This document shows positions 3,377-44,529 of a DNA stretch of 45,730 nucleotides, in pieces; the first letter of the stretch is position 1; each line of letters begins with the position of its first letter. Source of the DNA: Bacteroidales bacterium UBA4347 (GTDB lineage Bacteria; Bacteroidota; Bacteroidia; Bacteroidales; P3); contig DGTB01000085.1 in the NCBI GenBank assembly GCA_002394185.1, positions 1 through 45,730 on the forward strand. The letters are read 5' to 3'. The position numbers and the translations under genes are program-made. The notes beneath the pieces were generated by a model. That model was given only the letters and a program-made list of their open reading frames with translations, ran no database searches and was not told where the DNA came from.

Positions 3377-4579
3377 ATGGAAATCCTGTCGAATAGAATC
3401 CTCAATATGGCCGAGAGCGAGACTCTCGCCATGACCGCCAAGGCTCGCGAACTCAAGGCCCAGGGCAAAGACGTCATCAGCCTCTCCATTGGCGAACCCG
3501 ACTTCAACACCCCCGAAGTCGTCAAGGAAGCCGCCAAGAAAGCTATCGACGACAACTTCACCCATTATCCCCCCGTGCCCGGCTACCCCGACCTGCGCGA
3601 GGCCATCTGCACCAAGCTGCGTCGCGACAACGGCCTGGAGTACAAACCCGAGCAGATTGTCGTCAGCACCGGTGCCAAGCAGAGCCTGTTCCAGGTGGTC
3701 CAGTGCCTCATCAACCCCGGCGACGAGGTCATCATCCCCACCCCCTTCTGGGTCTCCTACAAGGAGTTCGTCCGCCTGGCCGAGGGCAAATGCGTCTTTG
3801 TGAAGACCAAACTCGAGAATGACTTCAAGGTGACGCCTGAGCAGCTCGAGGCCGCCATCACCCCCCGCACCAAGCTCATCATGTTCTCCTCGCCCAGCAA
3901 CCCCACCGGCATGCTCTACACCAAGGAAGAACTGAAAGGCATCGCCGACGTGGTGGCCAAGCACGAGAACCTCTTCGTCATGGCCGACGAAATCTACGAG
4001 CACATCAACTTCGTGGGCAAGCACGAGAGCATCGCCCAGTTCCCCGAGGTGAAGGAGCGCGTCATCACCGTCAACGGCGTTGCCAAGGGCTTCGCCATGA
4101 CCGGCTGGCGTATCGGCTTCATCGCCGCCCCCACGGTTATCGCCAAGGCCGCCAACAAACTCCAGGGCCAGGTGACCAGCGCCACCTGCTCCATCGCCCA
4201 GAAGGCCACCGTCTGCGCCATGCTCATGGACCCCAAGACCTCGAAGGACATCATCGACATGCGCAACATCTTCCAGCAGCGCCGCGACATGGTCTACAAG
4301 CTCCTCTGCGACATCCCCGGCCTCAAGGTTCGCCTGCCCCAGGGTGCTTTCTACTTCTTCCCCGACGTCAGCGCCTACTACGGCAAGTCGTTCAACGGCA
4401 AGAAGATTGAGAACAGCACCGACATGGCCTTCTACCTGCTCAACGAGGCCAACGTGGCCACCGTCATGGGCTCCGCCTTCGGCGACGACAGCTGCATCCG
4501 CCTCTCCTACGCCACCAGCGAGGACCTCCTGCGCGAAGCCCTCCGCCGCATCAAAGAGGCCCTGGCCAAGCTGCAATAG
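3377..4579 (+). CDS. aspC: Aspartate (class I PLP-dependent) aminotransferase
   Basis: 400 aa with SSPSNPTG and the PLP-lysine region NGVAKGFAMTGWRIGF. Confidence 0.85.
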   Translation: MEILSNRILNMAESETLAMTAKARELKAQGKDVISLSIGEPDFNTPEVVKEAAKKAIDDNFTHYPPVPGYPDLREAICTKLRRDNGLEYKPEQIVVSTGAKQSLFQVVQCLINPGDEVIIPTPFWVSYKEFVRLAEGKCVFVKTKLENDFKVTPEQLEAAITPRTKLIMFSSPSNPTGMLYTKEELKGIADVVAKHENLFVMADEIYEHINFVGKHESIAQFPEVKERVITVNGVAKGFAMTGWRIGFIAAPTVIAKAANKLQGQVTSATCSIAQKATVCAMLMDPKTSKDIIDMRNIFQQRRDMVYKLLCDIPGLKVRLPQGAFYFFPDVSAYYGKSFNGKKIENSTDMAFYLLNEANVATVMGSAFGDDSCIRLSYATSEDLLREALRRIKEALAKLQ

Positions 4580-32271: not shown

Positions 32272-32470
32272 CATAAAAAAAGAGAATTCCAACACAAACA
32301 TATAAAAAATAATCATTCATCACTAATTGCCACCAACTTACCATTAACTCACCCAAAGATATTGATACTTTTTTCAAAAAAAACAAGTGTTAAAAAATCA
32401 TAAAAACACACCTCTCATGTCACCTTTGGGCATTTTGGTGGTTATTATATATATAGAGAAGCTGACCAAA

Positions 32471-32974
32471 ATGGACATAAAACGGGATCCTAAATATGAA
32501 CTGTTCGACGGCTTGCTCACGCGGCACAGGGGACTGATACGCACCCTCTGTTGGCGGCATTCGTCCTACAGCGACACCACCTGCCGCGAGCTGGTGCAGG
32601 ACTGCTATGTCGCCATTTGGTTCCACCTCTCCTCCCTGCGCGAGAACAGCAACATCTGGCAGCAAATGACATGGGTTGCGTGGCAATGCCAGAGCGTCTT
32701 CTCGCACCGCCTCCGGCACCGGTTCCACGACTGGCTGCCAATCGACGACCACCTGGCCGACACACTGGCCGACAGCGACGGGCTCAGCCAACGGGAACTG
32801 ATAGAGGAACTCGCCACAGACCTCAATCCAAGAGAGCGTAGCCTGCTCACCCTTTTCCTCGAAGGCTACCACCAGAACGAAATCGCCGAGAAACTGGAGA
32901 CGACACCGGCCGCAGTCAAAAAAATGAAACAACGCATCATATCGAAAATGGCAAACAACACAAGAACAACATGA
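32471..32974 (+). CDS. Sigma-70 family (ECF-like) RNA polymerase sigma factor
   Basis: Region 2-like ELVQDCYVAIWFHL and region 4 HTH LNPRERSLLTLFLEGYHQNEIAEKLETTPAAVKKMKQRIISKM. Confidence 0.75.
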   Translation: MDIKRDPKYELFDGLLTRHRGLIRTLCWRHSSYSDTTCRELVQDCYVAIWFHLSSLRENSNIWQQMTWVAWQCQSVFSHRLRHRFHDWLPIDDHLADTLADSDGLSQRELIEELATDLNPRERSLLTLFLEGYHQNEIAEKLETTPAAVKKMKQRIISKMANNTRTT

Positions 32975-33282
32975 AGACAGAACAGGAAATAGAAGAAATC
33001 ATCAACGCCGAGGCAGCACGCAACCGCCAGTTCCTTGACCAAATCCGTAACTTGGCCTTGGAACATAATGCCGACCTCGAGGAATGGTGTGCCCGGCGCC
33101 GGCGCCACAATGCCTTTGTCCGCACCGCCGTGGCCGCATGCCTCCTCGCCCTCTTCACCTTCGTCGCCGGCACCGCCTATGCTGCGGCACCCGCTCCCGA
33201 CTTCACAGCAGGAACCTCCCATGGCGACATCCTCCCCGCACAGGCCTTCGACACCGTAACCAGAATCCTCTGCCTGATATAA
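32971..33282 (+). CDS. Putative single-pass anti-sigma factor
   Basis: 103 aa, ATGA-coupled to the sigma gene, with one TM segment (AVAACLLALFTFVAGTAYAAA). Assigned by position and topology only. Confidence 0.45.
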   Translation: MKTEQEIEEIINAEAARNRQFLDQIRNLALEHNADLEEWCARRRRHNAFVRTAVAACLLALFTFVAGTAYAAAPAPDFTAGTSHGDILPAQAFDTVTRILCLI

Positions 33283-33317
33283 GACAATAACGACAACGAT
33301 GACAACCAAAACAACAG
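33283..33317. repeat. 9-nt periodic GACAAnnAn tract
   Basis: gacaataac gacaacgat gacaaccaa aacaacag, starting directly after the 33282 stop. Confidence 0.6.
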
Positions 33318-33396
33318 CTGCCGCACCCCTACTTCTTTCAAGCATACCCATTGTCCCCGATGTCTCTGTTGTCGTAGAAAAAGGAAGAGCCGAAAA

Positions 33397-33909
33397 ATGA
33401 ATACAAAAAAGAATATACGACGGTTTTGGTTGTGGGTAGGCATACTCTTGCTCGTCGACCTCGCGGTCATTACCCTTTGGAAGCGCTGGTACTGGTTCTT
33501 CCCCTCGCGCGAGGTCAGCGAAGTCTACACCCGCTATGCCGGCAACGAGGACTTCAACGTCGTCTTCCTCAAGGACTTCAAAATCAACGACACCGTCTTT
33601 GTCGACGTCACCCTCCTGGAAGCCAAAAACGACTCCTCCTGGGTCCGTATTAAAGACGATTTCAACATTACACCCATCCCCGACGAAATACTGTCTGTGG
33701 CCACAAATGATATCGTCAGTTTCTGGTATGCTCCCAAGAAAGACTACTCCCTCCCTATGGATTCATGTCTAACCAACAATGATATTATAGCAATCTCATA
33801 CCTGAAGAGAGAGATTGCTGTTTTCCACATTGAATCAGAAAAACAAATCAGACGCATTCTTGAATATCAAATATCAAATAACAAAAACCAAACAAATGGA
33901 AATGAATAA
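33397..33909 (+). CDS. Membrane-anchored hypothetical protein
   Basis: 170 aa with an N-terminal TM segment (FWLWVGILLLVDLAVITLW). Lower GC than the core genes. Confidence 0.6.
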   Translation: MNTKKNIRRFWLWVGILLLVDLAVITLWKRWYWFFPSREVSEVYTRYAGNEDFNVVFLKDFKINDTVFVDVTLLEAKNDSSWVRIKDDFNITPIPDEILSVATNDIVSFWYAPKKDYSLPMDSCLTNNDIIAISYLKREIAVFHIESEKQIRRILEYQISNNKNQTNGNE

Positions 33910-34318
33910 AAAAGTAATGAAAGCCGCACTCTTTGTAGTGTTGAGTTCGATGGCTGTCGGATGCCAAAAAGAGGATCTGCCGACCAACATCACCGAGATA
34001 ACAGGTGTTGCCAATCCCTCATGTACACTGGTTTACTCTATCAATGGCGTTGTGTTTACATCTACTTATGCAACCGAAGAAGAGTGCCATGCATTCATGC
34101 TGCACCTGATGGAGCTCTCTCGTGAAGGAAATGAGATAGTGGTATCGGCAAATGGTTATGGCTCAAATGTACTCGGAACTAAAGAAACCGTCACTTACAC
34201 TACACCGAGCAGCGACGATGCTGCGGCATGGTCGGAAAAAATGGTCAAAGATGGATACCGGGTTTACGTAACCTACGATTCCGTTAAAAAAGTCCATATT
34301 TGTGTTGCAGTAAAATAA
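33896..34318 (+). CDS. Small lipoprotein, unknown function
   Basis: Lipobox LSSMAVGC. Starts at 33896, 33902 or 33917 are all possible. Confidence 0.6.
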   Translation: MEMNKKVMKAALFVVLSSMAVGCQKEDLPTNITEITGVANPSCTLVYSINGVVFTSTYATEEECHAFMLHLMELSREGNEIVVSANGYGSNVLGTKETVTYTTPSSDDAAAWSEKMVKDGYRVYVTYDSVKKVHICVAVK

Positions 34319-34594: not shown

Positions 34595-35908
34595 ATGAGA
34601 CATCTAAACAAACTTGCCCTCGCCGCCTGCCTCCTCTTGTCCTATGGCATCGCGCTGGGACAGACCGGGCAGGGACTGCCAAGTCCGGCATTCCATTGGA
34701 AGTGCCCGTCCGCCGATTCGGCGCTGAACTTCCATCCGGCGACCACCGCCCCACTCCTTTTCGACAGCATCCCCTATGCCGAAGACTACACCGTTGTGGT
34801 GGTCTATAAGCCCGTCGTGGACACCGAAGCCACTGTGTGGCAGCTCGTCTTCGCCGACAGCATTGGTCGTGGGCTGACCACCGAGCGTATCCTCTCCGAC
34901 AGCACAGCCATCCGCTTTGCTGAACATACCGACCGCAAACCGGTGATCCATACCTTGCGCCAGTCCGCCCCCGACTCCTCTTCTGCCTACGCCAGCCTGT
35001 CTGTCGGCGACGGAAACATCAAGGTCTCCGAGGTGCTGTACTTCAATCACCGTCTTGGCAACGCCGTCCTACGCAGGGTGCAGTCCATCCTGGCCATCCG
35101 TTATGGCATCACCCTCGGCCCTGTCGACTATATTGGAGTCAATGGCCACCGTGTATGGCAACATCGGCTCGACAGTGCCGTGTTCCACCACCGCATCACG
35201 GGTATTGGCAGCGACACCTCCCTCCATCAATTGTGCAGCCGCTCCGAAATGGACGGCTCCGTCGTCACCCTCTCTGCCGACAGCCTCCCGCAAGGGGCTT
35301 ACCTTCTCATTGGCGACAATGATGCACCTCTGACATTCCTGCAGGAGGCCTCTGACATTGAAACGCTCGCCCGCCAATGGCGCGTTCAGAGTTCAGGTAC
35401 AGAGGATGTCGCGTTTTCTCTTGCATTTGATACGCGGAGTATTCCCGTTCCCACCGACAGCCTTGTGCTGTTACTCGATGGTGGCATCATCCTCCCATCG
35501 GTTGTGACTGCCAACGAAGTACGTTTCAATAATCTATGGCTCTCGTCCGACACCTGTACCTTTACCCTCGCTCGCGGTGCCTTCTTGTGGCAGCTGGCGC
35601 AATCCGGCTCCAAGGGCGCCAAAGGTCACAGTGGCAAAGAGTATGACGAACATGAGAAAGTTTCAATTTTCAATTCTCAATTTTCACTTTATCCGAATCC
35701 CACCACTGGCCATTTCAACATCGAGGTGTCCGGTGCCCGTCAGGTACAGGTAACGATATATAACCTACAGGGTAAAGTAATCGCCACCTACGGCGACAAT
35801 AACCGTGACCACTATTGCTTCGAAGGTTCCCTGCCAACAGGCAATACCTACTTCGCCACCATCGCCACCGAGAGTGGCAGTCAGACCATAAAACTCATCG
35901 TAAAGTAA
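34595..35908 (+). CDS. Secreted protein with a T9SS C-terminal sorting domain
   Basis: Signal peptide. C-terminus LYPNPTTGHFNIEV...VTIYNLQGKVI...YFATIATESGSQTIKLIVK is a typical Por/T9SS CTD. The passenger domain is unassigned. Confidence 0.8.
   Translation: MRHLNKLALAACLLLSYGIALGQTGQGLPSPAFHWKCPSADSALNFHPATTAPLLFDSIPYAEDYTVVVVYKPVVDTEATVWQLVFADSIGRGLTTERILSDSTAIRFAEHTDRKPVIHTLRQSAPDSSSAYASLSVGDGNIKVSEVLYFNHRLGNAVLRRVQSILAIRYGITLGPVDYIGVNGHRVWQHRLDSAVFHHRITGIGSDTSLHQLCSRSEMDGSVVTLSADSLPQGAYLLIGDNDAPLTFLQEASDIETLARQWRVQSSGTEDVAFSLAFDTRSIPVPTDSLVLLLDGGIILPSVVTANEVRFNNLWLSSDTCTFTLARGAFLWQLAQSGSKGAKGHSGKEYDEHEKVSIFNSQFSLYPNPTTGHFNIEVSGARQVQVTIYNLQGKVIATYGDNNRDHYCFEGSLPTGNTYFATIATESGSQTIKLIVK
35658..35692 (-). 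repeat. Heptamer array in the passenger-CTD linker of the T9SS protein
   Basis: Coding strand aagtttc aattttc aattctc aattttc actttat encodes KVSIFNSQFSL. The reverse complement is gaaaatt/gagaatt, the same words as at 9713..9747. Confidence 0.9.
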
Positions 35909-35975: not shown

Positions 35976-36683
35976 ATGAAAAATCTCAGAAAAATGACCA
36001 TGCTACTCTTTGTGGCAGCCACAATGTTCACTTTCTCGTCCTGCAACAAGGACGATGACGACAATGGCATCAGCGAAACCAATCTTGTGGGCGAGTGGGG
36101 TTGGCCGAGCGACCATGCATTAAAATTTTCCAAATTAGTCATCAAAAACGACCATACGGCCACTTTCAATAGCCTGCCCTACACATGGACGCTGAAAGGA
36201 AACACTTTTAGCGGTACAGCTGGTAACGGCCATGAAATAAACTTTAAAATAAAGTCCCTGCGCGGTGAAAAAATGGTTATTGAGGGAGAGGAGCAACTGG
36301 TGAGCGATGTTTCTTCCATTACCCTCTCCGACCTTTCCGGCACCCTCATTAAGACCGTAACCACAACTTCGCCCACATTGACCGAGGAAATTATGGTCGG
36401 GACCTGGAAGTTCAAGGAGACTGGGCAATACAATCAGTACGACGTAATTATCAAGAGTGACCACACATTTGAATATCAGGTCTCCCACGATAAAGGCACT
36501 TGGGAAATTGAAGGTTCTAAATTTATTGGGATAGAAAAAGGAGGAAACTATGATGGCAGCGACCGCGAGTATTCTTTTACCGTAGAGTCCATGACAAGCT
36601 CCTCAACAGAAGTTGTACTGAAAGCAGTCGATGGCAAAGACGGCAATAAGACTTTCGTAGGCACATATACTAAAAACCTCTGA
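35976..36683 (+). CDS. Lipoprotein with two lipocalin-like halves
   Basis: Lipobox FTFSSC. LVGEWGW... and MVGTWKFKE... mark an internal duplication. Confidence 0.6.
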   Translation: MKNLRKMTMLLFVAATMFTFSSCNKDDDDNGISETNLVGEWGWPSDHALKFSKLVIKNDHTATFNSLPYTWTLKGNTFSGTAGNGHEINFKIKSLRGEKMVIEGEEQLVSDVSSITLSDLSGTLIKTVTTTSPTLTEEIMVGTWKFKETGQYNQYDVIIKSDHTFEYQVSHDKGTWEIEGSKFIGIEKGGNYDGSDREYSFTVESMTSSSTEVVLKAVDGKDGNKTFVGTYTKNL

Positions 36684-36704: not shown

Positions 36705-37361
36705 ATGAAACAACATCTATTTACGATGGCGCTGGTAGTCGGAGGCATGGCGATAGCCATGTTCTCCGCTTGCCAACGTTCAAACAATAAGAATTCGGAA
36801 TTGGAAGCATCACCTTCCATAGTCCAAATTGATACAGAGGAAATACAACCTGAATGTCTGGGAAATACAGCAGACTTACACCGTGCAGATGCGAAGATAC
36901 ATGTCAGACGGGGCCAGATGCTCGCATTGCAGACAGTGGGCTTGACTCTTACCGCCATCGACGCTGCTGTGCAGCACGAAGCCGTCTATTCGGTTACGTC
37001 ACTTGCAACAGAAGAACTACCACCGCTACCACAAGGAATGATAAATATGACCGCTGCCACAGGAGGTTACCGCCTATTACCCGGAGGAGAACACTTCTCA
37101 CCGTATGCAGAGCTCCGCATCGCCTACGACCCCAAGCGTTTGCCCCAAGGCTATACGCCCGACGACATCTACACCTCCTTCTATGACACCTCAAGCCTGG
37201 CATGGGTACGCTTGGAACGAGTGGAAGTGGTCAGTCCGATGGATGGACTGACGATGATTCAACCACCTACGACTACGACAACCTCGGCCGACTCGTCCGG
37301 CGCATCCATCCCGATGCCGGCACGACAACGTTCACGTATGACCCCGCAGGCAACCTCATGA
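36705..37361 (+). pseudogene. Rhs N-terminal lipoprotein leader fragment, out of frame with the repeat shell
   Basis: Lipobox AMFSAC. YRLLPGGEHFSPYAELRIAYDPKRLPQGYTPDDIYTSFYDTSSLAWVRLERV resembles N-termini of long Bacteroidales Rhs/SpvB-type proteins. The frame then runs into a T/S/P-rich tail while the YD repeats continue in another frame. Confidence 0.55.
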
Positions 37362-39868
37362 AAGAAACCAACCCCTTGGGAGAAATTTTTTACAGCTACA
37401 CATACTACAGACCCAAGAAGAAACGTTATTCCTACATGACAGGCAACGACGTGACCTACGAATACGGCACCAGCGGCAACGACATCGGCCGCCCCGTCCG
37501 CATCACCGACGGCAGCGGCAGCTACGAATGCCACTATGACAAACTCGGCAATGTCACTGACGAGACACGCACCATCGCCCTGCCACAGCACGGCGAGGTG
37601 TACCAGTTCAGAATGCTTTACCAGTATGACAGCTGGGGTCGTATGCTCTCGATGACCTACCCCGACGGCGAGGAGATAACCTACACCTATCAGTGGGGCG
37701 GTGACCTCCTCTCCATGCACGGCAACAAAAACGGCAACGACCGCACCTACATCAGGGAGATACAATACAACTCTTTCGGACAGAAAGAAAACGTGAACTA
37801 TGGTAATGGCACCAGTGCTCACTATACTTACGACGCGCTGCATCGCCTCGTCAATCTCCAAAGCACTGATAGCCTAGGCAACTTAATGCAAAACATTGAC
37901 TATACTTTTGACAATGCAAGCAATGTTACGGGCATTGTCAACAATGCCGGTGTTGTGAACATGCTTGGAGGTGTATACGAAAATACCTATAAATACGATG
38001 CGCTGCACAGACTTGAAGAGTCGTATGGTGGAGGTGCCATAGGAAACTACAACACCTATCTTAATTATTCACCATCGGGCAGACTGATAGGGAAATTCCG
38101 CGACAACAACTCAGTCACACTGTCGGCCTCAGTCGATATGGCCTACGGCTACTGCAACGACTATCAGCCTCACGCCGTGAAGCGTATGTTCGACTACAAG
38201 AACGGAATGCTTTACGACATGCGCTGGGATGAAGCAGGCAACCTCGGTCAGGTGAGCATGGCCAGGCCGGGCGAAATGTTTGAGGCAGGACGTTTCCTCT
38301 TCTGGACCGAGGACAACCGTATGCACGCTGCCGTGGACGACAAACACTATAGCTACTATGCATACGATTACGGCGGGGAGCGCCGGTTGAAACTGGTGGG
38401 AGTCAACAGCTCAGTGGATGTCAATGCCGAATACATGACTGCTATCTCTACATTGAACGAGCCGACGCTCTATCCCTCTGCCTACATGGTGCTGACCAAC
38501 AAGGGCTACACCAAGCACTACTATGCCGGTACCGAGCGCGTGGCCGCACGTCTCGGCGGTGGCGGACTGGATGCCCTGTATCCTGTTATCGGTAACGAAG
38601 AAGAACTCCAGAAAAAAGCTGATATATTGTTTAAACAAAGCATCGAACAGGTGAACAGCCGTGTGCTTCATGAAAATGATCTCGACTGCATAATGAACAA
38701 TGAATTCACTAAGGAGGAGTTTGGCCACCCAATTGAAGGCATCCCCTACCAGATGAAGGCAGACGTTAAGTGTGACCACAGCCAGCTCAATGAAATGGTC
38801 AACTCAATGTTGACCGATTATCATAACGGAAAGGAGGATGAAGTGTACTTCTACCATTCCGACCACCTCGGCAGTGCCAGTTGGATAACTGACTTCGGCG
38901 GTGAGGCGGTACAGCATATCCAGTACCTGCCCTACGGCGAGCCGTATGTTAATCAGCATCCCGCCGGATACCAGGAACGTTTCACGTTCACCGGGAAAGA
39001 GAAGGACGAGGAAACCGGCTACGGCTATTTCGGTGCCAGGTACATGGACCACGAGCTGATGACCATGTGGCTCAGCGTCGACCCGATGGCCGACAAGTAC
39101 CCGAGTATTTCGCCGTATGCTTATTGTGCCTGGAACCCAGTGAAGCTGGTGGATCCGGATGGATGTGAAGTGGGAGACTATTATGATAGAAATGGGCGAT
39201 GGTTAGGTACGGACGGAAAAACTGACCACGTAGCATATGTTGCAAAATCAGTGACAAAAAATTCAAAAGGACTTGTAGTATCCGCTGATGGTGTACAAAA
39301 GTTGTCCATCACAAACGAAGAGCTACTTGACAGGGCAACATGGGTATGTGGGGAAAGTGGAGGAAGCGGGGAATACATTTCCGATAGAACTCAGAATGCT
39401 GGCGATGCAGCGTCCGTCGCAGATGCTCGTGTGGTGGATTATTATGCTTATGCAATTAATAATGCATCGACGACTGATGGCGGATTCTATAAAGCTGCTA
39501 AAAACAGGATGGGGAAAATAATAAATGGGGTTTATACCAAAACATATGATGGGTATTTCGAAGGACGGGGGTTGGGGGGCAACACAAATAGTAAGGCGTT
39601 CTCTAACGCCCGAAATTCCGATATGAGGGAAATCAATCAAAACTGCTGTTTTACCAACTCCATTTCTGCTGTTATCAAATCTGTGACAGATTCGAACGAC
39701 CCAACAGGTGGTTGTCGTGCGTGGCTCGGCGGTGACGATGCAAATACGTATGTAAGGAACGGCTCGGTGTCTGTCAAGCGAGAAGGTAGAATTACGACAA
39801 ATCAATTTAGCTTCAATTCCAATAACGGAAGAAGCCACCATAGTTTTTACATATTATCAGTAAAATGA
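37202..39868 (+). CDS. Rhs/YD-repeat protein with RHS core and a variable C-terminal toxin tail
   Basis: Many YD repeats (YDYDNLGRL, YTYDALHRL, YKYDALHRL). Core YFYHSDHLGSASWITD...LPYGEPY...FTGKEKDEETGYGYFGARYMD...DPMADKY...NPVKLVDPDG ends at 39163, followed by an AT-rich 234-aa tail. Confidence 0.9.
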   Translation: MGTLGTSGSGQSDGWTDDDSTTYDYDNLGRLVRRIHPDAGTTTFTYDPAGNLMKETNPLGEIFYSYTYYRPKKKRYSYMTGNDVTYEYGTSGNDIGRPVRITDGSGSYECHYDKLGNVTDETRTIALPQHGEVYQFRMLYQYDSWGRMLSMTYPDGEEITYTYQWGGDLLSMHGNKNGNDRTYIREIQYNSFGQKENVNYGNGTSAHYTYDALHRLVNLQSTDSLGNLMQNIDYTFDNASNVTGIVNNAGVVNMLGGVYENTYKYDALHRLEESYGGGAIGNYNTYLNYSPSGRLIGKFRDNNSVTLSASVDMAYGYCNDYQPHAVKRMFDYKNGMLYDMRWDEAGNLGQVSMARPGEMFEAGRFLFWTEDNRMHAAVDDKHYSYYAYDYGGERRLKLVGVNSSVDVNAEYMTAISTLNEPTLYPSAYMVLTNKGYTKHYYAGTERVAARLGGGGLDALYPVIGNEEELQKKADILFKQSIEQVNSRVLHENDLDCIMNNEFTKEEFGHPIEGIPYQMKADVKCDHSQLNEMVNSMLTDYHNGKEDEVYFYHSDHLGSASWITDFGGEAVQHIQYLPYGEPYVNQHPAGYQERFTFTGKEKDEETGYGYFGARYMDHELMTMWLSVDPMADKYPSISPYAYCAWNPVKLVDPDGCEVGDYYDRNGRWLGTDGKTDHVAYVAKSVTKNSKGLVVSADGVQKLSITNEELLDRATWVCGESGGSGEYISDRTQNAGDAASVADARVVDYYAYAINNASTTDGGFYKAAKNRMGKIINGVYTKTYDGYFEGRGLGGNTNSKAFSNARNSDMREINQNCCFTNSISAVIKSVTDSNDPTGGCRAWLGGDDANTYVRNGSVSVKREGRITTNQFSFNSNNGRSHHSFYILSVK
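38987..39163 (+). repeat. Rhs core-end homology block, copy A (177 nt)
   Basis: Encodes FTGKEKDEETGYGYFGARYMDHELMTMWLSVDPMADKYPSISPYAYCAWNPVKLVDPDG. Recurs at 40587 and 41965. Confidence 0.9.
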
Positions 39869-39881
39869 AATATCCCGCAAA

Positions 39882-40445
39882 ATGAAATACCTTGCAGTAT
39901 TACTAGTTCTTATGTTATTTACACAAGAATCTATTTCACAGACTCGTCTAAAAGATTTACCTTTCTCTAAAGAACTAAAAATTGTTCATGATGATAGTGT
40001 GAGTCGCACGATTTGTATTGATGACAAATCCAATACCTATTGGGTGGATTCCATTTATCCTTTGTTCTATGAATATGAATACCCTGAAAAGGGGGTAATT
40101 ACCCAGCGTAGTTTTTTGGTGTCTGGAACTAATAAATATCTGCTTGACTCTTTAATAATTAAAAACTATAATGACTATTGCCTTTCTTTGGATATAGCTA
40201 GGGTTAATATATTTAAACAAAAGGGGTCAGAATACTTGTTTATTGAGTGCTATAATATATTTCAATATGGAAGTGACTCCCAGCCTATATTTATATTATT
40301 AACAAAAGAAGGAAACAATTTTGCACATCCATCAGTCTATTTAATGGACATCTACTCTGAAAATGCATATGAGAATATCTATATTCTATATGAAAACGAC
40401 AAAATCGTAATGAAAGGAGAAGGTGTATCATTAATCTCGTTCTAA
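39882..40445 (+). CDS. Putative immunity protein for the resident Rhs tail (exported)
   Basis: 187 aa, AT-rich, signal peptide MKYLAVLLVLMLFTQESISQ, 14 nt downstream of the Rhs stop. Assigned by position. Confidence 0.6.
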   Translation: MKYLAVLLVLMLFTQESISQTRLKDLPFSKELKIVHDDSVSRTICIDDKSNTYWVDSIYPLFYEYEYPEKGVITQRSFLVSGTNKYLLDSLIIKNYNDYCLSLDIARVNIFKQKGSEYLFIECYNIFQYGSDSQPIFILLTKEGNNFAHPSVYLMDIYSENAYENIYILYENDKIVMKGEGVSLISF

Positions 40446-40565
40446 TAATGGCAACAACCAAAATGGCAAACAATTGTCTTTGCATAGGGTATTCTAACTA
40501 TCAGAATATTATAAACAATGCTCCATTCGGCACAAAAAACCAACACAAAAAACTGCACGCAAACC

Positions 40566-41369
40566 ATGCGGTTTCAACCTCCATCTTTCACCGGGAAAGA
40601 ACGCGACGAGGAAACGGGCTACGGCTACTTCGGAGCCCGCTATATGGACCATGAGCTGATGACGATGTGGCTCTCCGTCGACCCGATGGCCGACAAATAT
40701 CCCTCTATTAGTCCCTATGCCTATTGTGCATGGAATCCTGTCAAGCTGGTTGATCCGGATGGAAGAGATTGGGTTGTAATCTTTGACCATGAGAAAAAAA
40801 CGGTTACGGTCAATGCAAAATATGTAACCAAAGGTGATGAAGCATATGCGTCGGCGGAGAAAGCTATTAAGGCATGGAATAATTTATCGGGAAAATATAG
40901 CTTGATGGTTGGAGACGAAAAATATAGCGTTAATTTCAAGTTGTCTGTAATTGATAACTCAGAAGCAGTTCTCGGCGACCCAGAACTGAACGTCTACAAA
41001 TTAGTATCCGAACTAAGAAACAAAGACGGAGAGGTTGATGAAAATATTATGGGAGAAACAAACCGCAGAATAATAAACGTTCTTGAGTCAGAGAAAGACA
41101 ACTATGTAACTTCGTCACATGAAATAGGCCATAGTTTAGGTCTAGAGCATTTCATAAATGGGACGAAAGGTCTAATGGAAGAAGATGGTGGAAGATTAAG
41201 TTGCTGTCATGAAATAACCAAGTCCAATGTAGATAATATCTTGCATCTTGCTTTGCATCCTGAAGATCGCAATCCAAAAACCAAAAGTGGCGTAGGGTCA
41301 TATAAGGTAATTGGGAGCAGCAAAGTGGATATAAAAAATCGGTTTAATTTAAGATTACTCAAAAACTAA
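40566..41369 (+). CDS. Orphan Rhs C-terminal cassette with a metzincin-like zinc-protease tail
   Basis: Starts MRFQPPSFTGKERDEETG... with the core end to DPDG (40763). The tail contains HEIGHSLGLEH (HExxHxxGxxH). An earlier ATG at 40518 is possible. Confidence 0.75.
   Translation: MRFQPPSFTGKERDEETGYGYFGARYMDHELMTMWLSVDPMADKYPSISPYAYCAWNPVKLVDPDGRDWVVIFDHEKKTVTVNAKYVTKGDEAYASAEKAIKAWNNLSGKYSLMVGDEKYSVNFKLSVIDNSEAVLGDPELNVYKLVSELRNKDGEVDENIMGETNRRIINVLESEKDNYVTSSHEIGHSLGLEHFINGTKGLMEEDGGRLSCCHEITKSNVDNILHLALHPEDRNPKTKSGVGSYKVIGSSKVDIKNRFNLRLLKN
40587..40763 (+). repeat. Rhs core-end homology block, copy B
   Basis: By hand count, 30 mismatches in 177 nt versus copy A, nearly all synonymous (one K-to-R change). 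Confidence 0.9.
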
Positions 41370-41375
41370 AAAGTC

Positions 41376-41855
41376 ATGAAAACACATCTATGGTTAGTAA
41401 TTTTGCTAGTTTTTTTCTCATCCTGTGGGGTTAGCAAAACTTCCTCTAACATTGTTGATTATGATCGTCTTTTGTTTTCAAATGGAGAATACTCAACAGT
41501 TTTGGGTACATACATTTTGCATGACACAATTACTACTGACACAATGGAAAACGAACATTGTATACTTCTTGGTAATATTTTTGCAAGAAATCCATTACAG
41601 GAAATATATGGTGCGGAAAAATCCGAGAAATTCAGTCTATTTGATAATTGTTTAGAGTGGCCACACTTATTCATTCCTTCCCTAAACTTAGACATACAAA
41701 TGGTAGATGGTTCTTATCGTGTGGATATTCCTAGCGGATTATATGATGTTATTATTTTTGCCAGAGATTATGATCCAATTCACATTAGATGGAACTTTAT
41801 CAGTCACCATATTTATTCGATTGACTTTTATTTGGGCTGCACAGTCATTCACTGA
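41376..41855 (+). CDS. Putative immunity lipoprotein for the metzincin-like tail
   Basis: 159 aa, lipobox VFFSSC, 6 nt after the orphan stop. Confidence 0.6.
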   Translation: MKTHLWLVILLVFFSSCGVSKTSSNIVDYDRLLFSNGEYSTVLGTYILHDTITTDTMENEHCILLGNIFARNPLQEIYGAEKSEKFSLFDNCLEWPHLFIPSLNLDIQMVDGSYRVDIPSGLYDVIIFARDYDPIHIRWNFISHHIYSIDFYLGCTVIH

Positions 41856-41943
41856 TTATAACCTCTCCTAACAGAGAATACAAAGTTCACAAATAGTTGA
41901 ACACAGGAACTCATAAAATAGAATGGGTAAATCGATTAAAACC

Positions 41944-42204
41944 ATGCGTTTTCATCCCTTCGTTTTCACCGGCAAAGAGAAGGATGAGGAAACGGGCTAC
42001 GGCTACTTCGGAGCCCGCTATATGGACCACGAGCTGACGACCATGTGGTTGAGCGTTGACCCGATGGCAGACAAGTACCCATCTATTAGTCCCTATGCGT
42101 ATTGTGCGTGGAATCCTGTGAAGTTGGTTGACCCGGATGGACGTAAAATACATTTATATAATGATCTAACTGTAGAAAAAGTAAAAAAATACATGAGAGA
42201 ATAG
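41944..42204 (+). pseudogene. Vestigial orphan Rhs cassette (core end plus a 20-aa tail)
   Basis: MRFHPFVFTGKEKDEETG...DPDG, then only RKIHLYNDLTVEKVKKYMRE and a stop. Multiple stops follow in all frames. Confidence 0.7.
41965..42141 (+). repeat. Rhs core-end homology block, copy C
   Basis: By hand count, 23 mismatches in 177 nt versus copy B, with one M-to-T change. Confidence 0.9.
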
Positions 42205-42299
42205 AAACCTGCTAGGCAATGTGACTAGAGAAAGTGCGGGTATAGAAAAAGTGAAATATCAAAATATTGCTCAACGAATATTAAATAGAACAGAAAGAA

Positions 42300-42783
42300 A
42301 TGGAAACGACCACCAATATTAAAGCGCTTTTGATAATCTGCATGCTATTTGCAAGTGGATATGGTCATGGGCAAAACAGCGTTTCATTCGAATAATTGGG
42401 ATTTTGTATTTAAAAAAGGAGACTCGTATTGTTATAAAATGATAGACTATACAAAGAACTCTGACTCCAACGTTGATTCAATTAGAGTTTTATATTATTT
42501 TGATGGAGACAGTGTTGTGAGAGTAGACAATTATCAGTCTCGCACAACTTATTTGTACCACAATACAGCGAACTCCCAGTATGGTAATAATTGTACGATA
42601 ATTGAATGGAAAGATGGAGAATGTAATTATAAATTTAGTCTAGGGCATGAGAGAATAGAAAAGAGAATGATCTTTGCATTTATCGGAATGCATCCTACTG
42701 ACAATATGAAAGTTGAAGATGACTACAACAATTGCATTAAATCTTGTGTACAACACAAGGAGATGATAATATTCCATCAATAG
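42300..42783 (+). pseudogene. Frameshifted putative immunity gene of the vestigial cassette
   Basis: The ATG at 42300 encodes a signal peptide (METTTNIKALLIICMLFASGYGHGQ) that hits TAA at 42393. The body (…NNWDFVFKKGDSYCY… to 42783) is open in another frame from 42349. Confidence 0.55.
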
Positions 42784-42970
42784 ACAAAGAAAAAAGAGAC
42801 AAAAAAACGCATTAAACTGGGGCGGAGAACTGGCACCAGTCACAACGGAAAAGAATAGATAAAACAAGGCTATTCCGTTATTGTTTAAAAATACAAAGGC
42901 GAACAGCGACTGACGAAACCAAAAATCGCAATACACTGCAATTTTATTTTGCCATTATCAAAAAAAAATG

Positions 42971-42978
42971 TATTTTTG
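42971..42978 (+). promoter_or_regulatory. -7 box TAttTTTG for the hipBST-like operon
   Basis: TATTTTTG lies 28 nt upstream of the ATG at 43006. Confidence 0.5.
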
Positions 42979-43005
42979 CATCGAAAATCGCAACATGTTG
43001 AGACT

Positions 43006-43227
43006 ATGGATCTGAAAGAAATTGGACAGGCTATCAAGTCACGACGGGCATCGCTCGGTGTGAACCAACGCACGGTGGCGGAACTCTCTGGAGTCGCCGT
43101 AAACACACTTGTCGCCATCGAACGTGGCGAAGGTAACCCACAAATAACCACCCTGATGGATATTCTCAACACCATCGGTCTCCAGGTTGAGGTGAAACCC
43201 AAAATAATGGAGTATGAGACAATGTAA
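43006..43227 (+). CDS. hipB: XRE-family HTH protein, HipB-like
   Basis: MDLKEIGQAIKSRRASLGVNQRTVAELSGVAVNTLVAIERGEGNP is a classic Cro/C1 HTH. Overlaps the next gene by 14 nt. Confidence 0.8.
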   Translation: MDLKEIGQAIKSRRASLGVNQRTVAELSGVAVNTLVAIERGEGNPQITTLMDILNTIGLQVEVKPKIMEYETM

Positions 43228-43525
43228 GGTGTATGTGAATGACTTGGAAGCCGGTTTGTTGACAGAAGAAGACAGCGGACGGTATAATTTCTCCTATTCA
43301 GTCGGTTATACCGGTAAAGCCGTCTGTCTGTCCATGCCAGTGAGGAACGAGGCATACACCTCGGACCATCTGTTTCCATTTTTTTTCAACATGCTCTCAG
43401 AGGGCGCGAACCGCAAGATACAGTCGCAGCTGTTACATATCGACGAAAATGACGACTTCGGCATCCTGCTGGCCACCGCTCAAACAGACACCATCGGAAC
43501 GGTAACAATCAAACCAGTGCAATGA
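43214..43525 (+). CDS. hipS: HipA N-terminal subdomain as a stand-alone protein, HipS-like
   Basis: 103 aa. VYVNDLEAGLL...LSMPV...FPFFFNMLSEG...DTIGTVTIKP parallels the HipA N-terminal domain (VG.L...LSLSLP...FF.NLLP...D.VGA.T). Confidence 0.75.
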   Translation: MRQCKVYVNDLEAGLLTEEDSGRYNFSYSVGYTGKAVCLSMPVRNEAYTSDHLFPFFFNMLSEGANRKIQSQLLHIDENDDFGILLATAQTDTIGTVTIKPVQ

Positions 43526-44529
43526 TGGAAGAATTGAGATTTTGCCCTTCGACACTGAAAGAAGGTTTTAATACATATTCTCCCGAGGCCTGCCGCAGTC
43601 TGTTCGGCGGGAAGCAAGTGTCGCATATACTGAATTTTGACAGCCCTAACAACGCCAATGCCGACTCGACCGACTATGCAACCCATATTGGACGCATCTC
43701 GCTTTCCGGTGTTCAGCCCAAGGGGGCGCTTGTGTTGCGAAACAGAGTGCTGTCGAAACCAGAAAAAGGAGAACGGGGACGGTATATTTTGAAACCTGCA
43801 CCGGTATCCTATGCATTGCTGGAGCGCAAGTATTGTCCCGCCAACGAACACCTTACCATGCAGATGGCTTCACAAGCCTACGGCATAGAGACCGCCCGCA
43901 ATGCGCTCTGCTTTTTTCGCGATGGAGAGGCCGCGTATCTCACCAAACGGTTTGATGTGGCTCCCGATGGAACAAAATATCCGCAGGAAGACTTCGCTTC
44001 TTTGGCCGGATTGACCAGGGCCAATGGAGGAAGTGACTACAAATACAACATATTGAGCTACGAAGATTGTGCCGATATCATTCGTCGCTATGTTCGTGCT
44101 GCACAGGTGGACCTGCTGCGATTCTTCCGGGTGGTGCTGTTCAACTACATCACACTGAATGATGATGCCCACCTGAAAAACTTCTCCCTCATCGACCGTG
44201 GAGATGGAGACTACCGTCTCGCTCCAGCCTACGACCTCATCAATACAAGCCTGCATCTGCACCGACCTCACATCTTCGCGTTGGAAAAGGGCCTTTTCAA
44301 AGAAGGGATGCGCATGTCCGACACCCATACCGTGGACAGGGGCGACTTCGAAGAATTCGGACATAGAATCGGTTTGCCCAACCGGACCATCAACCGTGAA
44401 CTCGACACTTTCGCAAAGGAATCTCCTCTCGCCTTGAAGTTGATAGCGCATTCATTCTTGTCGGAGAAACTGAAGAAAGACTACCGGTTGTCGTATCAGT
44501 ATCGATGCTTCACATTATCATCCCATTAA
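43522..44529 (+). CDS. hipT: HipA-family Ser/Thr kinase lacking the N-terminal subdomain, HipT-like toxin
   Basis: 335 aa with Gly-rich loop ISLSGVQPK, catalytic NDDAHLKNFSL and APAYDLINT. ATGA overlap with the hipS-like gene. Confidence 0.8.
   Translation: MMEELRFCPSTLKEGFNTYSPEACRSLFGGKQVSHILNFDSPNNANADSTDYATHIGRISLSGVQPKGALVLRNRVLSKPEKGERGRYILKPAPVSYALLERKYCPANEHLTMQMASQAYGIETARNALCFFRDGEAAYLTKRFDVAPDGTKYPQEDFASLAGLTRANGGSDYKYNILSYEDCADIIRRYVRAAQVDLLRFFRVVLFNYITLNDDAHLKNFSLIDRGDGDYRLAPAYDLINTSLHLHRPHIFALEKGLFKEGMRMSDTHTVDRGDFEEFGHRIGLPNRTINRELDTFAKESPLALKLIAHSFLSEKLKKDYRLSYQYRCFTLSSH

Follow-up and report, generated by a model that had tools for sequence, protein, structure and literature searches.

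The subject of this analysis is an Rhs polymorphic-toxin locus in a 45,730-nucleotide (nt) stretch of contig DGTB01000085.1 from Bacteroidales bacterium UBA4347, a metagenome contig that is called the window here and to whose positions 1 to 45,730 all coordinates refer. Judged from its sequence, it is a genuine Rhs swappable-toxin-tip locus of rumen-type Bacteroidales with the C-terminal-displacement architecture that a preliminary description of the window had recognised, in which variable tails follow a DPDG motif, exported proteins are encoded downstream of them, and orphan modules are present. The features of the locus are listed below (lengths of proteins in amino acid residues).

36705 to 37229, + strand: 5′ remnant of the rhs gene with a lipoprotein signal peptide (…AMFSAC), corresponding to residues 1–189 of the full-length protein (tblastn, five relatives of ~3,000 residues)
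37229 to 37283, + strand: deletion junction, where VRLERVEV continues as GQSDGWTDDDSTTYDYDNLGRL, the frame changes and ~1,960–2,050 codons are gone
37202 to 39163, + strand: TcC-like Rhs shell fragment with an internal ATG at 37202, YD repeats and a core with an aspartyl autoprotease motif
38961 to 39163, + strand: core-end repeat copy 1 (repeat search, DNA alignment), ending at DPDG
39164 to 39868, + strand: tail 1, 234 residues, a toxin domain without a Pfam or NCBIfam model, with an invariant E64; probable cell-wall hydrolase
39882 to 40445, + strand: Imm1, 187 residues, with a type-I signal peptide; candidate cognate immunity protein to tail 1
40561 to 40763, + strand: core-end repeat copy 2 (orphan 1), in a reading frame open from 40518 with a gene-caller start (MRF) at 40566
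40764 to 41369, + strand: tail 2, 201 residues, a metzincin-type zinc metallopeptidase (HEIGHSLGLEH … GLMEEDGGR)
41376 to 41855, + strand: Imm2, 159 residues, a lipoprotein with the lipobox FFSSC; candidate cognate immunity protein to tail 2
41939 to 42141, + strand: core-end repeat copy 3 (orphan 2), with a TIGR03696 match (E = 4.7e-15) on the open reading frame (ORF) 41923–42204
42142 to 42204, + strand: stump of tail 3, with 20 codons (RKIHLYNDLTVEKVKKYMRE) between DPDG and a stop codon, its toxin domain lost by deletion
42300 to 42783, + strand: Imm3 pseudogene, with an ATG at 42300, a signal peptide (METTTNIKALLIICMLFASGYGHGQ…) and a stop at 42395; the remainder (42349–42783) is in another frame

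The 888-residue ORF at 37202–39868 carries RHS/YD repeats (Pfam RHS_repeat, E = 4.5e-20, four stretches; TIGR01643, E = 4.2e-16) and, at residues 575–654, the Rhs-associated core (TIGR03696), whose end, NPVKLVDPDG, falls at nt 39163, exactly where the preliminary description had placed the limit of the conserved part. A repeat search returned one direct-repeat family, consisting of the three 203-nt core-end copies, with pairwise identities of 155/203, 157/203, and 172/203, and a three-way DNA alignment loses identity right past GATCCGGATGGA, the DPDG codons, in every copy. Located by tblastn, the 59-residue core end lies at 38987–39163, 40587–40763, and 41965–42141, in agreement with the positions first reported for the two downstream copies; the pattern is real and exceeds chance by a wide margin. 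The longest exact matches inside the locus measure 16–21 nt between resident and orphans and 44 nt between the orphans. Both autoprotease Asp residues are kept in all three copies, and in a profile alignment the core end KE(K/R)D … SVDP … DPDG matches the cleavage (autoprotease) region of TccC3 and YenC2, the catalytic pair of TccC3 being D651 and D674.

The sequence past DPDG had been described as unrelated and AT-rich, of which the first holds throughout and the second in part: relative to the core end, with a guanine-cytosine (GC) fraction of 0.57, the shift is moderate in tail 1 (0.43) and strong in the immunity genes and orphans (Imm1, 0.31; tail 2, 0.37; Imm2, 0.34; orphan 2 remainder, 0.32). 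Because the host backbone has a GC content of about 57–65% (window 1–32000, with a fraction of 0.57 over the first 32 kb) and the immunity genes and orphan tails one of 31–37% (39800–42900), the cassettes probably came from Bacteroidales of much lower GC.

The locus was compared with 77 related loci (L002–L078) from metagenome-assembled genomes (MAGs) of rumen and gut Bacteroidales. Intact relatives of the rhs gene encode proteins of 2,969–3,064 residues (L005, L008, L016, and L036), and the copy in L004 is cut at a length of at least 3,004 residues. In order, these proteins consist of an N-terminal extension of ~190–217 residues; an SpvB domain, an FG-GAP propeller, and a TcdB middle region; the Rhs shell, which ends with the aspartyl autoprotease motif and DPDG; and a toxin tail of ~200 residues. 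The three domains that precede the shell are present in L036 and L016 and absent from the window copy, whose missing part, as read from the full-length relatives, comprises SpvB, FG-GAP, TcdB_toxin_midN, and DUF6443, and these ~2,000 missing residues are homologous to TcdB2, TcdB1, and YenB from about their residue 3. The N-terminal 189 residues have no Pfam or NCBIfam match, and no PAAR, VgrG, or EagR family was found in the 22-kb neighbourhood (Pfam) or in the full-length relatives, the N-terminus of which is a lipoprotein signal, and the locus is not an Rhs of T6SS type. On domain content, the parent protein is a lipoprotein-anchored fusion of TcB-like and TcC-like halves, of which the window copy keeps only the TcC-like one.

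In tblastn alignments of the full-length relatives against the window, residues 1–189 map to 36693/36705–37229 in frame 3, and residues ~2150/2240 to ~2780/2870 map to 37283–39163 and onward in frame 2; the relatives' N-terminus was matched in 12 loci. Homology to the shell begins at 37283, 3′ of the ATG at 37202, and the ORF at 36705–37361 is out of frame past 37229 until its stop at 37361, and hence the window contains no intact main gene with an in-frame delivery N-terminus and a complete shell. The alignments show an out-of-frame internal deletion of ~6 kb, which took the whole TcB-like half and split the signal peptide from the shell. Rhs loci are repeat-rich, metagenome assemblers collapse repeats, and the window is a metagenome contig, all of which would favour the view that the deletion and the broken orphan 2 are assembly or sequencing artefacts and that the real rhs gene of ~9 kb is intact. 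We regard this as exceedingly unlikely, since the junction joins non-homologous points (residues 189 and ~2150), so that repeat collapse does not apply, and since the same junction and frame change are found, identically, in the syntenic locus L006 of an independent MAG from another project (RUG12038; 80–93% nt identity, differing by 7–20% elsewhere in the region) and the exact 888-residue product is encoded on three contigs. The deletion in orphan 2 is likewise bracketed by sequence that is 97–98% identical in L060, whose own tail deletion differs.

The main gene of the window is therefore best described as a long orphan (a 650-residue shell with tail 1 and Imm1) that abuts the 5′ stump of the original gene. 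Long orphans with ~650 shell residues and a tail start within ~25 residues of each other in L002 (9875–12556), in L005 (9953–12418, a second ORF), and in the window (37202–39868); their shared start point is the boundary of the TcB-like and TcC-like halves, which may reflect a breakpoint used repeatedly or a module exchanged as a unit.

When L006 is compared with the window, the body of rhs shows a synonymous divergence (dS) of 0.80 and a nonsynonymous-to-synonymous ratio (ω) of 0.19 over 616 codons, whereas the flanking gene for a type IX secretion system (T9SS) cargo protein has a dS of 0.12; the 3′ part of the locus has therefore continued to trade sequence with other copies of rhs since the deletion took place. 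An interpretation of the ω value as purifying selection on the truncated body was dropped, since a dS that exceeds the flanking gene's six- to sevenfold means that the divergence is not vertical and ω is uninformative on selection in place. The L006 copy has suffered a further 26-nt deletion, and with it a frameshift, ~110 codons before DPDG.

These data also bear on whether the locus is still a working weapon, in which the 888-residue ORF, or a fusion of N-terminus and shell made by frameshifting, would be a functional mini-Rhs that delivers tail 1, with the orphans as spare tips. The ORF is intact, L006 retains its ATG and first residues, its ω is low over the 616 codons, its size and layout are those of a stand-alone TcC (YenC2, 970 residues; TccC2, with a 664-residue body), and the long C-terminal fragments of L002 and L005 start near the same point. 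However, the product has neither a signal peptide nor a TcB-like half, no TcB-like gene lies nearby, and in all full-length relatives ~2,000 further residues complete the shell. As for frameshifting, no slippery heptamer was seen on reading the sequence of the 160-nt overlap of the two ORFs, and the stretch over which the N-terminal ORF runs on out of frame lacks conservation, the stop coming earlier in L006. The additional frameshift of the L006 copy, ~110 residues ahead of DPDG, and a body dS far above that of the flank, which points to exchange with paralogs and not to constraint in place, also speak against a functional mini-Rhs, and we consider it unlikely.

Orphan 1 is intact, with 83 in-frame codons through DPDG, the 201-residue tail 2, a gap of 6 nt, and the 159-residue lipoprotein ORF of Imm2; tail 2 and Imm2 homologs are also adjacent in L002, at 57% and 40% identity. 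The motifs HEIGHSLGLxH and GLME(E/x)DGG(R/K) are kept in 20/20 homologs of tail 2. Pfam and NCBIfam zincin models match the tail only below their cut-offs (gathering scores). An AlphaFold (AF2) model with a predicted local distance difference test (pLDDT) score of 94.7 matched matrix metalloproteinase (MMP) 12, profragilysin-3, ADAMTS-4/5, and ulilysin when searched with Foldseek against the PDB (probability 1.0, E down to 1.3e-4). Tail 2 shares with these metzincins (MMPs, fragilysin, ADAMTS, and ulilysin) the HExxHxxGxxH zinc site and a conserved downstream Met, with target-normalised template modelling (TM) scores of up to 0.58 at an identity of only 13–17%, and differs from them in being delivered as an Rhs tail and in having a lipoprotein immunity partner. 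On its motifs and modelled fold, tail 2 is a metzincin-type zinc peptidase.

Orphan 2 is a dead cassette. Compared with L060, where an intact gene of ~250 codons is present at 97–98% nt identity, Imm3 lacks 266 nt; in L060 itself, a larger deletion at the same place has taken the entire tail together with the core end, and the two cassettes are decaying independently. The preliminary description had counted one resident tail and two orphan tail-immunity cassettes, each core end being followed by a different tail and a small ORF with a signal peptide or lipobox. This stands for orphan 1 and for the export signals of Imm1 (signal peptide) and Imm2 (FFSSC); it fails for the resident, from which ~2,000 codons were deleted, and for orphan 2, which has lost its tail to a 20-codon stump and part of its immunity gene, so that the small ORF there is a broken gene.

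Homologs of tail 1 (n = 52, 48–97% identity) carry no Pfam annotation of the tail; tail 1 and 30 of its homologs had no Pfam match, and tail 1 had no NCBIfam match. When 1.84 billion representative proteins were searched with a profile, 187 clusters were found at E ≤ 1e-3, 116 of them covering no fewer than 170 of the profile's 228 positions. In an alignment of 133 sequences, Glu64 is 100% conserved and Trp187, Gly189, Gly183, Asp179, Ala95, and Asn100 are conserved at 89–98%. Relatives of the tail stand behind PAAR-like DUF4280 (P0090 and P0092), Hcp (P0099), and a Peptidase_M23 domain (P0076, E = 7e-69), and also on Rhs proteins, one of them 2,962 residues long (P0104). The AlphaFold model of tail 1 has a pLDDT of 95.2, and about ten of its top 35 matches in BFVD, a database of predicted viral structures, are phage cell wall hydrolase SleB proteins. 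By our own reading, tail 1 shares with SleB/CwlJ (Hydrolase_2) the collinear motifs LLxR…E, xxNN, FxNSIxxVI, GG…W, and HxF and the presence of one invariant Glu, and departs from it by an insertion of ~60 residues and an extra N-terminal β-subdomain. Given the invariant Glu, the fusion to M23, the carriers of type VI secretion system (T6SS) type, the weak fold hits, and the exported partner, tail 1 is probably a peptidoglycan-degrading hydrolase that acts on the cell wall from the periplasm, most likely as a glycosidase or lytic transglycosylase that would use Glu64.

The biochemical assignment is weak, and several results count against it. The BFVD matches have E values of 0.04–3.5 and TM scores of 0.33–0.49; a Foldseek search of the model against the PDB gave no significant match (best E, 0.49), with the solved SleB structures not among the hits; and an hhalign comparison with Hydrolase_2, for which eight genuine, verified Hydrolase_2 proteins from phage records served as test set, gave a probability of 0.9%, or of 1.4–2.6% with the 133-sequence alignment. 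A tblastn search of tail 1 against 50,697 phage genomes found no match, and a profile search of the PDB from tail 1 matched only the Rhs core end. Membership in SleB/CwlJ (PF07486) was accordingly not demonstrated, there being no Pfam match, an hhalign probability below 3%, and nothing in the PDB, and is kept as a lead on the BFVD hits. Matches to designed armadillo proteins in a PDB sequence search (E down to 5.6e-7) were rejected as a 27-residue chance match summed over repeats, because no single stretch passed. The effector chemistry that the preliminary description had left open to profile and structure searches can thus be given for tail 2, as a metzincin by Foldseek, and narrowed for tail 1.

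Imm1 homologs (blastp E = 1e-8 to 1e-14) lie directly 3′ of tail-1 homologs in three further loci, L079, L080, and L081, and those of L079 and L080 carry a signal peptide; Imm1, Imm2, and Imm3 had no Pfam or NCBIfam match. At 3745–7724 of L081 (Joint Genome Institute [JGI] 3300036962 contig Ga0377220_0000270) there is a non-Rhs polymorphic toxin pair, whose members have a common N-terminus (…RFQNPWGK.GEYYNQSAVGG…) and different C-termini, one being a tail-1 domain followed by the Imm1 homolog. An SLT lytic-transglycosylase domain that had been considered for a neighbouring protein in L081 was dropped for want of Pfam support.

Across the window and the 77 related loci we counted 192 core ends (between one and seven in each locus) and 172 tails of at least 60 residues, which fall into 67 families. 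The 185 complete cassettes have a median tail length of 205 residues (typically 129–220), and 16 tails are shorter than 60 residues. Fewer than 150 in-frame codons stand upstream of the tail in 123/165 cases in the related loci, and 75–83 do so in the window's two orphans. Tails are neither invariant nor syntenic among relatives, as would be expected if cassettes were swapped: in L006, the closest relative, there are five different downstream tails, none in common with the window, although the flanking genes differ by a dS of only 0.12. The orphan core ends have codon-position entropies of 0.37/0.32/1.16, a constraint of coding type, and this bias towards the third position is expected if a working autoprotease must be encoded after recombination.

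A conserved leader of ~70 nt lies just 5′ of the core end in 42/119 short orphans of L002–L078; it reads in frame as LNQPAHKTEGVNRTQTMRFYPFV, often with TAA TTG before it, and degenerate copies occur at window positions 40500–40586 and 41897–41964. Its entropy is flat across codon positions (1.00/1.03/1.04), the behaviour of non-coding DNA, and the leader may be a promoter, a recombination site, or a relic. The possibility that short orphans are translated independently, from the conserved leader and the conserved MRF start, was dropped, since equal entropy at all codon positions means no coding constraint.

Among ORFs within 200 nt 3′ of tails of at least 100 residues, 132/157 (~84%) have a signal-peptide-like N-terminus and 38/157 (24%) a lipobox, the signal-peptide calls across loci being made by a crude heuristic. 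Because most of these ORFs look exported, the survey suggests that the family may deliver mainly periplasm-acting toxins, by a route that would end in the periplasm of the target cell. The full-length relatives have the TcB-TcC cocoon of insecticidal Tc toxins, and metzincins such as fragilysin (Foldseek hit 7pol_A) act on host proteins, from which it might be supposed that the family is Tc-toxin-like in purpose, insecticidal or host-directed, rather than interbacterial. We judge this very unlikely: every tail is followed by a small ORF specific to its family, mostly exported, which is the mark of a producer that shields itself from a toxin aimed at bacteria; members of the tail-1 family are joined to PAAR-like, Hcp, and M23 peptidoglycan peptidase modules; and orphan arrays are typical of antibacterial Rhs and contact-dependent inhibition (CDI) systems. 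Nor was a TcA-like gene found in the gene table of the window contig or among the large neighbouring ORFs of L005, L014, and L016 (±10 kb).

Two further genes lie immediately upstream of the rhs remnant.

34595 to 35908, + strand: T9SS cargo gene with DUF8202 and a Por_Secre_tail C-terminal sorting domain (Por_Secre_tail E = 3.4e-10)
35976 to 36683, + strand: lipocalin-like lipoprotein gene (Pfam Lipocalin_4, E = 8.3e-6), between the T9SS cargo gene and rhs

In 10/10 related loci for which DNA on the 5′ side is available (L005, L006, L008, L010, L011, L014, L016, L021, L036, and L049), the gene that directly precedes the Rhs N-terminus is a homolog of the DUF8202/T9SS-cargo gene, a position that suggests that the DUF8202 protein is a functional partner of the giant Rhs lipoprotein; a PDB search with this protein returned nothing. 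The lipocalin-like gene occurs in only some relatives; in L006 and L014 it is found at the corresponding place. The T9SS-cargo/Rhs block is preceded, at 32387–34318, by a gene for a sigma factor of extracytoplasmic function (ECF) type (Sigma70_r4_2), which could regulate the block. Small ORFs follow this gene, and two of them (33397–33909 and 33896–34318) have conserved counterparts in L006 and L010. Immediately 3′ of the array, at 42949–44529, three overlapping or adjacent ORFs encode an HTH_3 protein (92 residues), a HipA N-terminal domain that stands alone (Couple_hipA, 103 residues), and a kinase of HipA_C type (335 residues), which is the layout of the tripartite HipB/HipS/HipT toxin-antitoxin system.

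Considering these results together, we think it probable that the locus is a degraded Bacteroidales Rhs polymorphic-toxin locus that serves as an archive of immunity genes and tails rather than as a working weapon. In the intact family, by analogy with Tc and Rhs structures, the shell would enclose the tail and the two Asp residues (KE[K/R]D and SVDP) would cut it off after DPDG, while the downstream exported immunity protein would protect kin; short orphans, each made up of a core end, a tail, and an immunity gene, would be recombination substrates able to replace the resident tail. In the window, the ancestral ~6-kb deletion left the long orphan, followed by the intact orphan 1 and the dead orphan 2. 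Since there is no in-frame signal peptide and half of the cocoon is gone, this locus would be unable to deliver a toxin by itself. Imm1 and Imm2, which are intact and predicted to be exported, could give protection from neighbours that fire toxins of the tail-1 or tail-2 type, and the three core ends could recombine with an intact rhs paralog, if one exists elsewhere in the genome. Both intact toxins would act in the periplasm of the target, tail 2 as a zinc endopeptidase. The preliminary description's designation of an interbacterial antagonism locus accordingly suits the family, and for the window copy the evidence favours immunity and archiving over active delivery.

Some observations pull the other way from an archive. 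The 888-residue ORF is unbroken and its ATG is conserved in L006, so that some expression is possible; the ω of 0.19 resembles purifying selection, and our attribution of it to gene conversion from intact paralogs is an interpretation; and the archive role would require an intact rhs paralog elsewhere in the genome. That sequence alone would have counted the locus as a weapon matters for tallies of toxin arsenals from metagenomes.

The parent family has significance of its own, in that a fused cocoon of Tc-toxin type is combined with anchoring as a lipoprotein and with a T9SS-cargo gene as obligatory neighbour; MAGs of rumen and gut Bacteroidales commonly encode it, and the dominance of exported immunity partners suggests a delivery route that ends in the target periplasm. 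The tail-1 family, which numbers 116 or more clusters at 50% identity and has a confidently predicted structure, no solved relative, one invariant Glu, and a conserved exported partner, is an easy target for biochemistry. More speculatively, the ~3,000-residue TcB-TcC lipoprotein may be a T6SS-independent, surface-displayed, contact-dependent weapon of Bacteroidales that specialises in periplasmic toxins, since 84% of the partner ORFs look exported, with the T9SS partner replacing TcA as adhesin or translocator and with tail 1 as founder of a new peptidoglycan-hydrolase fold common to the PAAR-, Hcp-, and M23-linked effectors; we offer this as a tentative and rather doubtful proposal.

Cassette swapping is textbook architecture for Rhs loci, and what is new here is a toxin domain family (tail 1) without a Pfam or NCBIfam model and, possibly, a T9SS-linked delivery family. 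As in the enterobacterial Rhs systems of E. coli, Salmonella, Dickeya, and Serratia, the conserved YD-repeat shell closes with a motif of PxxxxDPxG type, past which come unrelated tails richer in AT, each with an immunity gene directly downstream, and downstream orphans keep only the core end and can recombine with the main gene. C-terminal displacement of this kind is attributed to Koskiniemi et al. (2013, PNAS) in PMC7073777, and exchangeable Rhs effectors are treated in PMC10539506. Unlike the enterobacterial main proteins, which are PAAR/VgrG-linked T6SS effectors of ~1,400 residues, the parent here is a lipoprotein of ~3,000 residues with a fused TcB-like half; there are no T6SS genes nearby, the immunity proteins are mostly exported, and the main gene of the window is a deletion remnant.

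The cocoon itself finds its counterpart in the BC component of Tc toxins (TcdB2-TccC3 and YenB-YenC2; PDB 4o9x, 6h6e, and 4igl). The full-length relatives have in common with it the N-terminal domain of SpvB type, the FG-GAP propeller, the middle region of TcdB, the Rhs shell, and the C-terminal aspartyl autoprotease region, the last of which aligns residue for residue with TccC3. In contrast to Tc toxins, the Bacteroidales protein is a single fused polypeptide with a lipoprotein signal and an N-terminal extension of ~200 residues, no gene for TcA was found, the tails, which look antibacterial, are accompanied by immunity genes and orphan arrays, and a T9SS cargo gene is the conserved neighbour. 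We found no description of a TcBC-type lipoprotein Rhs family in Bacteroidales in the open-access literature, which is not proof of novelty.

The closest Bacteroidetes parallel in the literature searched is the TANFOR toxin class, polymorphic toxins of Bacteroidetes with neighbourhoods enriched in T9SS substrates (PMC7073777). Both groups are Bacteroidetes-specific and have variable C-terminal toxins, downstream immunity genes, and T9SS-substrate neighbourhoods, an analogy that suggests a T9SS-linked route for the Rhs family as well; the delivery module here is, however, an Rhs/TcBC cocoon, and no TANFOR domain is present, Pfam and NCBIfam giving nothing for the N-terminus. For the window copy, the nearest likeness is to the orphan immunity islands of gut Bacteroidales, a form of acquired interbacterial defence (PMC10470768, PMC12247911), in which immunity genes persist although no working cognate effector accompanies them and presumably guard against the toxins of neighbours. 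Those islands counter T6SS effectors and are often on mobile elements, whereas the immunity genes described here stand in a decaying Rhs array that has retained toxin tails.

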